Assembly (NCBI RefSeq): GCF_032062105.1
Contig: NW_026931211.1
Location: forward strand, 186,001 to 250,000
Source of the DNA: Saccostrea cucullata
Taxonomy: Eukaryota
Reading direction: 5' to 3'
DNA length: 64,000 nucleotides
Of the stretch, positions 32,488 through 40,799 are shown one piece after another; the stretch's first letter is position 1, and each line of letters opens with the position of its first letter. The translations under genes and the position numbers were made by a program. Under the pieces are notes generated by a model that was not told the origin of the DNA, ran no database searches, and saw only the letters and a program-made list of their open reading frames with translations.

Positions 32488-35400
32488 TCAATATTCTATT
32501 TTGACATCAGATAACCAGTAAACTCCTCTACTTCCTTCATTAAGTCTCACTGTTAACACGTTTACTCCAGCTTTCAGTATTTTCTTAGGGATAGGAAAAG
32601 TTTGCTCCTGAAAGTCCTTCCACCAGGCGCCATCGTAATTCATCAGGTGTTCCTTACCATTCACCAGAATATCAATGGATCCGCCACAAGTTGTTTTACA
32701 ATGGTTTAATGTCAACGTCACTTCCTGGGCGGGTCTGTTGTCTGGTAAGTGGATCATAAAATGCGCCTTACTTCTTTTCGGTGTCGAAAAAATTTTGTAT
32801 GGTCTCCCATTTCTGTAATCTTCTGATGTTTCCAGTTCAATATACTTTTCCGAGTTATTTGTGTCGATCCAGATATCATTAGTCACAACTGAAAAAAGGA
32901 AGATTTTCGGATGAAGGAAGCTGCAGTCTATTTGAGAATTATTACGGTTTGAAAAAAATTTATATATTTATCATTGTAGATTGGCAAAATTGATGGAAAG
33001 AGGAGCCATGAGGAACTGGTGCGGTAGAGAATCATGATAATTCTGACTTTTTAACAGTGTATTATATAATTATTTTCTCATTGACAACATTTATATATAG
33101 TCTACGGAGACCATGTTTTCTTACAAACTGTTCCGATGGGCACTAATTGGGCTCCTTTTGTAGCCGACCTGTTTTTATATTCATATGAAGCAAAATTATA
33201 ACAAAAACCTCTACACAAAAAGAGGAAAAACACTTTGTAAGACAGCCGAGATGACTTCAACTTTTCCATCATCGGTTTTCCTAATTTCGTAGTTATTTAT
33301 ATAATTTAGTGTTGTGTTTTGCGTGCACTATGCCTAAATAGTAGTCAGGGTTTGACACATGGTGCACGAGCCGGAGGCGAGTGCACTATGTGTCAAACCC
33401 TGACTACTATTTAGGCATAGTGCACGCAAAACAAACACTATTGTTATTATTATGCTGACTGTTGTTACTGTATAAAAACGGCAATATTTTCTTCATTCCC
33501 AATGTTTCATCACCTGTAACATTCGTCTACTCTATTATGCAACATGTACGTCATAGTATTTTTCTTTAATTTTGAACGTTCCATGCTTTAGGTATAATCT
33601 ACAGATAGTTTTAGAGAATATTATTTGAGTGAAGGAAGGGGAGTTGCAAGAAACTATTTTAGAAGAATTATTTTGTTGTCCCCCGCTTTCGCGAAAGCGA
33701 GGGGACATTAAATCTCATTCGTCTGTCTGTCTGTCCGTCTGTCCGTCAGTCTGTCAGTCGGTCAGTCTGTCAGTCTGTCCGTCACAAAAACTTTAACCTT
33801 GCCCATAACTTTTGATTTAGTGGAGCTATGACTTTCATATTTCACATGTGTATTCCTTGTGACAAGACCTTTCTTTGGGTACCACCAAATTTGACCTTTT
33901 GACCTTGACCTTGGAGTTTGACATACTTTTACACAAAAATTCCAAACTTTTACTTTGGCCATAACTTTTGAATAGTAGGTACTAGGACTTTCATATTTCA
34001 CATATTCATTGTTCGTGGCAAGACCTTTCATTGGATAACAACAACCTTGACCTTTTGACCTTGACCTTGGAGATTTACGTACTTATGAAAAAACTTTAAC
34101 CTTGACCATAACTTTTGAACAGTGAGGACTAAGGCTTTCGTACTTCACATATGTAATCCTTGTGAGAAGACCTTTGATTGGATACCAACAACTTTTACCC
34201 TTTGACCTTGACCTTGGAGTTTTAACTACTTTTTAAAAACTTAAACCTTGGTCACAACTTTTAAACAGTGGATACCATGACTTTTATATTTCACATATGT
34301 ATTCCTTGTGGCAAGACATTTCATTGGATACCAACAACCTTGACCTTTTGACCTTGACCTTGGAGATTTACGTACTTATGAAAAAACTTTAACCTTGACC
34401 ATAACTTTTGAACGGTGAGGGCTAGGGCTTTCGTACTTCACATATGTAATTATTTTGAGAAGACCTTTGATTGGATGCCAACAACTTTTACTCTTTGACT
34501 TTGGAGTTTTTTTAACAACTTTTTTAAAAAAACTTTAACTTTGGTCACAAGTTTTGAACAGTGGAACTAGGATTTTTATATTTCACATATGTATTCTTTG
34601 TGGCAAGTCCTTTCATTGGATATCAACAACTTTGACCTTTTGACCTTGACCTTAAAGATTTACGTACTTATGAAAAAACTTTAACCTTGACCATAACTTT
34701 TGAACGGTGAGGGCTAGGGCTTTCGTACTTCACATATGCAATTATTTTGAGAAGACCTTTGATTGGATGCCAACAACTTTTACCCTTTGACTTTGACATT
34801 GGAGTTTTTTTAAAAACTTTTTAAAAAAAACTTTAACTTTGGTCACAAGTTTTGAACGGTGGATACTAGGATTTTTATATTTCACATATGTATTCGTTGT
34901 GGCAAGTCCTTTCATTGGATATCAACAACTTTGACCTTTTGACCTTGACCTTAAAGATTTACGTACTTATGAAAAAACTTTAACCTTGACCATAACTTTT
35001 GAACAGTAAGGGCTAAGGCTTTCATACTTCACATATGTTATTCTTGTGAGAAAACCTTTCATTAGATATCAACAACTTTGACCCTTTGATCTTGACCTTG
35101 AAGTTGACCTACTTTAAATTTTTTTTTACTTCTCCATAACTTTTTAACGGTCAGGATTAGGGTTTTCATCCTTAAAAAAAATAAACTTCAATGTTACTTT
35201 CTAAATAAATGAAATATGATAAGATGTTCACATTACACACAATATGTTATAAAAATAACATCGCACCCACAAAGACACCGAGAGCGGGGGACCCCAATTC
35301 TTTGAATTTGCTTGTTTATTTTTAATTTTAATTATAAAATATTTGAAACTAAGTTTATATATATTATAGTACGAGACTATAGATAAGGGCGTCTGTGGCA

Positions 35401-36640
35401 TAATCGGTAGCGCGTCGGACTGACAATCTCGGGGTCGTGAGTTCGCTCCCCGGTATGGGTGTTGTCGGATTTTCCTCAAAAATGGAAGCCGTGCACTATT
35501 TCGGCATAGTACGGTTACGCTCTATAAATCCTTAGAACACTATGCGAGAATAGTAGGGTATGGGTTATATAGAGCCAAACTGACAGGAAGCATAATAATT
35601 TTCAATATCACCTGCTCTTGTGTATGAAATTACGAAAGCCTATTAGGATCAATCTAGAGAGAAAAAAAATTTAATAGGCGTTATAACCCTTTCGAAAAGG
35701 CGTAATAACGCGAAAAAAGGCAATTATAACGCCTTTTGAAAAGGCGTTATTACGCCTTTCCATTCCAAAAAGCGTTATTAAGCCTTTTTAAAAGGCGTTA
35801 TTACGCCATCCAAAAGGCGTAATCATGCCTTTCCAAAAGGCGTTATTACGCCTTTCTAAAAGGCGTTAATACGCCTTTCCAAAAAGTCGTTATTACGCCT
35901 TTTACTTTCAATACATAACTAAACATATTTAGCCCCACCGAAGGGGGGTGTATGCAGAAATCGTACCTTTGGGACATGAATTTCACAATTAGATATAGGA
36001 CTAATTTCTCAAAAAATAATTTAAACAGATAGCAATTAGATTTCCAGGAAAAAAGATTTTTAAATGCGTCATATATTTTCAATGTTGAACCAACTAAGTC
36101 CTTCTTTCATACCAGGCACACCTCTACCAAGGGTCATTGATTTCAATTGCTCATTATACCCATGCAAATAGTTGCCTGCTTTTTTCCAAGAAAAGAGAAA
36201 AATATCTTCAAAGACATAAATTTTAATACACTGTACATGGCAAGCAAAGCTCCAAGATAAGTCTGCCTATATTCTAGATCTTCACAAGTAGAGTGTTGCC
36301 TTCTCTTAATACGAATGCAAACAGTTGTCAGTGAGATGTGCAGGAATATAGAGAATTGCATAAATAAAGATGGTTTTAATAAAATCTTTCTATATTAATT
36401 AACATAAGATAACGTCTTTTCCTTTTCCTTTTCATGTAGGCCAGTAATACAAGTGCGAATGGGGTAAACCCCCTCCAAACATACACACTTTTGAGGAAAA
36501 GTCTTGCTATAGTTTAAATATTATAATTAACTATTGGTTTCTTTGTTCCTGAACATTTTGTTGCAGTATGTAAAACTGTGACAAATTATTGCATTTAAAT
36601 AAATTTTTACCGAGTATTTCCCCCACGAATTTGGTTAGTG

Positions 36641-39600: not shown

Positions 39601-40799
39601 AAATAAAGTTCTTTGGGGTGCCATATCAGTCACTGAAACTAAAAATCAGAAAATATGTACTTCAAATCTCTGTCCAGGCGCCTTTAACCCTTTCATATAA
39701 TTTTATATCGAGTTTTCTTTATTCAAATGCTATACATATTACATGTAACTTCTAAACATACCAGTTCTTATATTTAGATCAGACAACAAATATTCCCCTT
39801 GACTTCCCTCGTTCAGGCCTAGGACCATTTTGTTGTTCCCAATTTTTATCGTATTCAATGGAACTCGAAATGTATGCTCGCTGAAATCATCCGAGCTGGC
39901 AACATGATAACTTCTATACAGAAACTCAGAATTCACTTGAAAATAAATCCGCACTTCATCAGATGTGGAACAGTGGTTTAGCGTTACCGCTATATCGCTG
40001 ACCCCTGAGGGTAGGTGGAGGGAGACGGTGACGGCGCTTCTCCCGGGGTCAGAGAGAACCTTGTAGGGTTTTTCTTTTCTGAGCATAATCGAGGTTGTCA
40101 CGTCATGATACTCTGTACTGTTATTTGTGTCTATCCATGCAACCCTTCTCGGAACTGTGAAACAAAATAAAATGCATGTTTACTTCATTATTTTAATTTA
40201 GGAGTTCCATGGCTATCTAATTTATCTATTATCCACCTTTGAAAGGGATCATTAAACCTTACTAGTTTTTAACCAAGGCTTTGACTTCTTTGTTAGCAAT
40301 CTTGAAAAGACTATTTGCGATAGAATTCCATTAGTTTTCTTAATTTAAATCAACCCCCCCCCCCTAGCTTGTAACAGGACAAAATCTGCCACAGAAACAA
40401 TAAAAATCAGGAGCAGCGAAACACGGGCCTCTAAAACATCAGAGATGGGATCAGGTACCATGAAGGAGTGAGCATCCCCTGCCAACCGGTCACATCCACC
40501 GTGTGCTCCTGGTTATCATTATAAAATAACGGAATATCCATCGACAATTCTGTGTGTACATAATGGCCTAACAATAAGTATAAAAGACGTCAGTCAGCAT
40601 TTGGGTTAGGGTTAGAACATCTACATGCAGCGTGTCTTTTTTTTCTCTCTCTCTCTCAAATAGACTGAATATTCATGATGCAAAAAGTATTGCAATAATT
40701 ATTACTTCAAGAATTAGTATTAATTTTATTAATTAGAATATCTTCATATCAAATATGCTTTAATCACTGGTACTTACCGCTAGTTCCATTGTAATCCAT
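32488..40799 (-). CDS. Uncharacterised 406-aa protein of three tandem beta-sandwich (CBM/galactose-binding-like) domains, copy B. Exons 40799-40778, 40154-39762, 38211-37807, 32888-32488
   Basis: Canonical GT-AG sites, all introns phase 1, 22+393+405+401 = 1221 nt open. The three domains share K..s.P..S...HLP, VTLN(H)C, I.VN, F.IP...L..G.N.L...LNE.S...Y.L.D. Structure is conserved in copy A. Confidence 0.82.
33676..35317 (+). mobile_element. Helentron-like non-autonomous element carrying a ~146-bp satellite array
   Basis: 5' hairpin gtcccccgctttcgcgaaagcgaggggac, (ctgt/cagt)n tract, about 10 units containing aaaactttaaccttg..cataactttt and tgaccttgaccttg, 3' gcgggggac. Confidence 0.75.
35387..35461 (+). 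other. tRNA-like sequence (pseudo-tRNA)
   Basis: A-box-like tggcataatcggta and B-box-like gagttcgctcc at tRNA spacing; acceptor and anticodon stems pair poorly. Confidence 0.5.
35633..37067. mobile_element. Foldback element whose long TIRs are built from ~21-bp palindromic tandem repeats
   Basis: ta|cgaaagcctattaggatcaatctagagag ... ctctctagattgatcctaataggctttcg|ta. Arms consist of aaaggcgt(a/t)ataacgcctt units. Confidence 0.8.
39195..39605. mobile_element. Hairpin-bearing non-autonomous element
   Basis: Palindrome at 39215-39283 centred on gcccGAAgggc. Absent from copy A. Boundaries approximate. Confidence 0.5.

Follow-up and report, generated by a model that had tools for sequence, protein, structure and literature searches.

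A leaderless gene of three homologous domains in Saccostrea cucullata: a candidate cytosolic glycan-binding protein

Gene structure and copies at the locus

The stretch of Saccostrea cucullata DNA analysed here, 64,000 nucleotides (nt) long and referred to as the window, carries on its minus strand a gene of four exons, called copy A (Table 1). The joined reading frame of the exons is uninterrupted over 406 amino acids (aa), and all three introns are GT..AG and in phase 1. An in-frame TAA precedes the ATG of exon 1 with no AG between the two, which means that the frame is closed and that no leader can come from this exon. Neither a signal peptide nor a membrane segment was found in the three-domain protein by sequence analysis. 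Each of the remaining exons encodes one domain, and the three domains share 37–42% mutual identity, with tblastn E values down to 1e-23. A preliminary description of this DNA was thus right about the exons, the phase-1 introns and the upstream TAA in all checkable details; its statements that three exons encode three homologous domains and that there is no leader are likewise borne out, the frame being closed upstream and hydrophobic segments absent.

A tandem copy of the whole gene, copy B, went unmentioned in that description. Its last part appears in RefSeq as the model P0001, of 210 aa. The ratios of nonsynonymous to synonymous substitution rates between copies A and B are 0.43, 0.23 and 0.17 for the three domain exons, which indicates that all three domains were under purifying selection. 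A genome search gave 12 matches from 14 candidates, corresponding to the two copies in the window, a second three-domain paralog on another contig (G000:C13521:5341-30915), and a single-domain gene. The paralog has a last intron of 23 kb; its first exon was not found, and its last exon is present also on the near-identical contig C1013. The single-domain gene, located on two contigs of ~90% identity, resembles copy A in its short first exon and its phase-1 acceptor; this is the structure expected of a starting point for exon duplication. In a tree of 40 rows, taken from 103 domain sequences, the domains of the two three-domain paralogs pair one to one (supports of 100/99, 99/97 and 91/90). The tree and the identities between the domains support the origin by exon duplication proposed earlier. 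Likely, a single-domain bivalve gene underwent internal exon duplication, followed by whole-gene duplication at least twice.

We now turn to the question of whether copy A is one gene or two. In RefSeq model P0002 (145 aa), exon 2 follows exon 1 and is read through into intron 2, while model P0106 (253 aa) begins at an internal Met of exon 3, which is joined to exon 4. Compared by eye, the exon 1–2 and exon 3–4 junctions are both carried as predicted, and the exon 2–3 junction is in neither of the two models. A one-domain protein from exons 1–2 plus intron sequence and a separate two-domain protein starting at the internal Met would agree with these models, with single-domain genes being the norm in bivalves, and with the lack of a joint for intron 2 among the RNA joints listed (15 of 173). 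The paralog speaks against this. All three domain exons recur there in unchanged order, with domain-by-domain identities of 54, 58 and 50%, and the phase-1 acceptors and GT donors of the paralog are at codons homologous to those of copy A, yet the read-through tails 3' of the donors are unrelated between the two. Moreover, the paralog has a Val in place of the Met that starts P0106, and conservation extends to the residues preceding this position. With GT at a frequency of 0.056 of positions, two such donors would occur by chance with a probability of ~0.003, the agreement being inflated by shared ancestry. The exon 2–3 join rests on donors that are conserved in the paralogs. The genome comparison argues for one three-domain gene, a model that corrects a split RefSeq annotation, and we regard two genes as very unlikely.

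The preliminary description had called for junction support from RNA. Four of the 24 runs listed, from four studies, were aligned to the locus, two of them only guessed to be RNA. The tables are dominated by intronic repeats, with alignment depths of 2–10, and in the one raw-read RNA run the depth on the exons is almost zero. No intron of copy A is found among the 15 of 173 RNA joints listed. Indirect signs of splicing are seen, however, at the acceptors of exons 2 and 4. Namely, among the 24 RNA pieces listed, one contig begins exactly at 40154, the exon 2 acceptor, with 48 unaligned letters preceding, and two contigs break off five letters beyond the acceptor of exon 4, leaving 25 and 37 letters, which is the overlap expected from exon 3 of copy B. 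A further contig, from a run recorded as RNA, spans 40776-41001 unbroken, including the upstream TAA. The exon 4 contigs have the letters of copy B at 6 of 9 diagnostic sites, so that other individuals may carry intact B-like alleles. Some gene of the A/B pair is thus probably transcribed and spliced at a low level, a claim that concerns the pair and neither copy A specifically nor the exon 2–3 junction.

As to the surroundings, an apparently young long terminal repeat (LTR) retrotransposon lies between the two copies, and intron 3 of copy A contains three repetitive elements. The neighbouring membralin, B-box, LIM/KY-like Ig and seven-transmembrane receptor genes have no evident functional link to the three-domain gene.

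Table 1. Features of the window, with positions counted from its first letter
Feature	Position	Strand	Remarks
Copy A, whole gene	32488-40799	-	
Upstream in-frame TAA	40820-40818	-	21 nt 5' of ATG
Exon 1, coding part	40799-40778	-	7 codons + 1 nt, from ATG; phase-1 donor; same N-terminus and junction in RefSeq model P0002
Exon 2, domain 1	40154-39762	-	393 nt, 131 codons; diverged
Exon 3, domain 2	38211-37807	-	405 nt, 135 codons; most diverged of the three
Exon 4, domain 3 and stop	32888-32488	-	401 nt; canonical family member, predicted CBM35/6-like jelly roll
H62-C63 of domain 3	32703-32698	-	
W88-W89 of domain 3	32625-32620	-	
Copy B, tandem copy of whole gene	13395-16855	-	exons 93–95% identical to copy A; TAG in exon 2, 1-nt deletion in exon 3
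LTR retrotransposon	19507-27963		terminal repeats of ~270 nt, 99% identical; reverse transcriptase, integrase and PHD-finger frames; coding region in pieces
Tandem array	33786-35114		only in intron 3 of copy A; 147-bp unit (293-bp dimer), 9 units; related sequence at 57306-57600
tRNA-like short element	35388-35460		intron 3; A/B-box-like (read by eye), no tRNA by ARAGORN; probably head of a short interspersed element (SINE)
Foldback-like element	35631-37069		intron 3 of copy A; 1.4 kb; long inverted arms of a 23-bp repeat
Membralin	548-5630	+	
B-box protein	7723-9228	+	
LIM + KY-like Ig exon	43749-54582	-	probably one gene, presumably hillarin-like
Seven-transmembrane receptor	59279-60130	+	

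The domain: fold, family and conserved residues

The predicted fold is a jelly-roll beta-sandwich of CBM35/CBM6 size (~125–140 residues), and its closest structural matches are CBM35, CBM6 and CBM36, ca 3 Z units above non-lectins. Structure prediction and structural matching hence support the earlier assignment to a jelly roll nearest to CBM6/35. No solved structure related by sequence was found.

A profile search with the domain gave 105 cluster representatives at E ≤ 0.001 among 1.84 billion. None of the 96 relatives scanned has a Pfam model for the core domain, and the cut-off of the CBM-like PF14683 is passed by 4 of them, all distant. The members with an organism name (9 of 30 representatives looked up, and three more) come from Saccostrea, Ostrea, Mytilus, Pecten/Argopecten, the brittle star Amphiura, the mushroom Psilocybe, the Bacillus cereus group and Micromonospora. 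The named bivalve relatives are single-domain proteins of 147–209 aa without leaders and with 42–53% identity to domain 3; independent two- and three-domain repeats occur in the wider family. Fusion partners among the 96 relatives are DUF6973 (6), F-box (4), PI-PLC-X (3), WSC (1) and thioredoxin together with ricin-B (1). One or two copies of the domain stand N-terminal to PI-PLC-X (P0007, P0082, P0104) or DUF6973 (P0006, P0010, P0031, P0054, P0063, P0066) in bacterial or unnamed proteins. The proteins with an F-box and the domain (P0033, P0039, P0040, P0042, P0122) are from short contigs and fall mostly in one clade in the trees.

A distant group with prokaryote-type partner domains is linked to the family by profile comparison, with probabilities of 98.8 and 96.1, and shows scattered weak matches to several galactose-binding-like families. 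All six oyster domains are inside the core family, apart from this group (100/100) and outside the clade with the named bacteria (98/85), in a tree whose backbone is unresolved. This placement, together with the single-domain bivalve members of the core family at 48–52% identity to domain 3, weakens the suggestion of a horizontally acquired ancestry. As homologs are present in oysters, mussels and scallops, the domain is most simply read as inherited within bivalves, and an ancient horizontal transfer, in either direction, may lie further back.

Conservation was assessed from 84 core sequences, that is, 103 rows minus 6 oyster and 13 distant ones. There are 31 positions conserved to at least 60%, including D22, Y24, R25, Y30, S39, H62, C63, T65, F92, Y123, W124, S126 and D127. 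Domain 3 of copy A keeps 27 of these, domain 1 22 and domain 2 19; the corresponding numbers for the C13521 paralog are 27, 23 and 22. Domain 1 retains the His-Cys pair and has lost Y24, the loop aromatic and W124, and in domain 2 His62, the D-x-Y-R motif and the loop aromatic are all lost. The WW pair noted earlier is indeed present at residues 88–89 of domain 3, but its importance for the family is reduced, since W88 is not among the common residues at its column and W89 is found in only 11 of the 84 sequences, being Ser in domains 1 and 2 of both three-domain paralogs.

These losses bear on the reading of the preliminary description, namely a trivalent lectin whose three sites all work and which leaves the cell without a leader, serving immunity or digestion. 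The three domains are homologous and were all under purifying selection between copies A and B, and repeats of the domain have arisen elsewhere in the family, which would fit such a protein. However, the scores against the core profile drop from 142 bits for domain 3 to 102 for domain 1 and 72 for domain 2, in both paralogs neither of the latter two has the loop aromatic or the complete conserved site, and the near-zero depth in the raw-read RNA run also counts against it. Multivalency is thereby weakened, and we find this reading quite unlikely.

The conserved pair H62 (74 of 84) and C63 (72 of 84, and all six oyster domains) could alternatively constitute a metal-binding or catalytic site, making the protein a small redox or metal sensor; one thioredoxin fusion would be in line with this. 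However, both residues are within a predicted strand that aligns with the 'RYA' strand of CBM6/35, and the Cys is mostly Leu in the distant members. Such a function thus seems most improbable.

In a weak match, W89 aligns with a loop Trp of CBM35 that we take to be the region A Trp. According to two published accounts (PMC9843283; 10.1101/2021.09.23.461501), the sites of CBM6/35 are formed by loops that connect the sheets, where region A contributes a stacking Trp and region C an invariant Asn. By sequence pattern, the position of the region C Asn is apparently W124 here, so that the chemistry would differ from CBM6/35. The putative Ca2+ site residues D8, N10 and D127 show partial conservation. 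Given the predicted order of the strands, the segments 34–39, 62–70, 85–92 and 116–124 would all be at one end of the sandwich. On this model, the motifs H62-C63-[RK]-T65, A-x-x-[W/Y/F]-x-F92, G-x-S39 and G-V-Y123-W124 would be at or beside the loops of the end where CBM6/35 modules bind sugar.

Proposed function

We favour, as somewhat probable, a glycan binder of the cytosol in which domain 3 has the one canonical site and the other two modules are diverged. The gene is predicted to yield one leaderless chain of three CBM35/6-like jelly rolls, likely a cytosolic adaptor in which domain 3 is the main binding site. This domain would bind a terminal, possibly anionic, sugar by aromatic stacking and His/Arg contacts, while domains 1 and 2 would serve as spacers or have an altered specificity. 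That the domain is fused to an F-box in other proteins suggests recognition of glycans in the cytosol; the likely targets would be glycans exposed there on damaged vesicles, on retro-translocated glycoproteins or on intracellular microbes, or else storage glucan. The PI-PLC-X and DUF6973 partners may also hint at the ligand.

The F-box and PI-PLC fusions would also be explained if the jelly roll recognised a protein or an anionic lipid instead of a sugar, that is, if it were a degron- or phosphoinositide-binding module as APC10/DOC is. The best structural matches being CBM35/6/36, well above the non-lectins, and the presence of the carbohydrate modules WSC and ricin-B among the partners make this option unlikely.

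A wider proposal can be made tentatively. The oyster protein may be the first member to be noticed of a family, hitherto undescribed, of glycan sensors that act in the cytosol, share a bacterial CBM35/6-type fold and occur sporadically in invertebrates, fungi and a few bacteria. The domain would have been recruited independently as an F-box substrate receptor, in parallel to the FBA lectins, and as a targeting module for bacterial PI-PLC, while oysters triplicated it into one site and two adaptors. Within this proposal, the two recruitments would point to an anionic or glycosylphosphatidylinositol (GPI)/inositol-type ligand.

To our knowledge, few cytosolic lectins are known in animals. An unnamed, compact family that combines a CBM35/6-like fold with sharp conserved motifs and F-box fusions offers an easily expressed candidate cytosolic glycan reader of 130 residues, and the gene shows cleanly how phase-1 exon duplication can multiply a domain whose copies then diverge. 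If no glycan is bound, the domain would be an ordinary one of unknown function with a very common fold.

Comparison with known systems

The lectin domains of the F-type, galectin, C-type, H-type and DM9 families have no Pfam match in the three oyster domains or in 57 aligned members, and no curated family scored above its cut-off. Nor was a paper on the family found in the literature search, which left subscription papers and supplements outside. The clusters nearest by language-model features (0.96) belong to the mostly archaeal DUF7383 (PF24108), for which no paper was found either. One distant relative matches DUF7383 at E 2e-4, and its hidden Markov model gives no match for the three oyster domains at E up to 1.

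The preliminary description had pointed to both CBM6/35 and rhamnogalacturonan lyase domain III. The latter (PF14683, CBM-like) is the best Pfam match of domain 3, with E 0.006–0.009, but at 16–18 bits it is under the cut-off of 27, and the Foldseek template-modelling (TM) score of 0.54 is weaker than for CBM35/6, whose fold is the nearest. Identity to CBM35/CBM6/CBM36 (Xyn30D CBM35, PDB 4qb1) is 16–17%, and the match stays below the Pfam cut-offs; a CBM_35 match was obtained for 1 of 57 family members (E 0.008) and for none of the oyster domains, and the PDB profile match has E 0.31. The oyster protein also differs from these modules in being eukaryotic, leaderless and without an attached glycoside hydrolase, and in the apparent Trp in place of the region C Asn in domain 3; its Ca2+ sites are putative.

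The closest functional analogy may be offered by the FBA lectins. FBXO2/6/27 and NCCRP1 are leaderless cytosolic proteins (PMC3210139) with a galactose-binding-like domain, with or without an F-box. The oyster family would resemble them, including the F-box-less NCCRP1, in combining F-box fusions with a leaderless galactose-binding-like domain. There is no FBA Pfam match in the 96 or the 57 family proteins scanned, the oyster domain has ~130 aa compared to ~180–200 aa for FBA, and the oyster protein itself is without an F-box, which is present in 4 of 96 relatives and in P0122. Compared to all these systems, the fold and the exon-duplication route are already common, while the novelty lies in the family, in its use of the CBM35/6-like fold in eukaryotes and largely without leaders, and in its F-box and PI-PLC partners.
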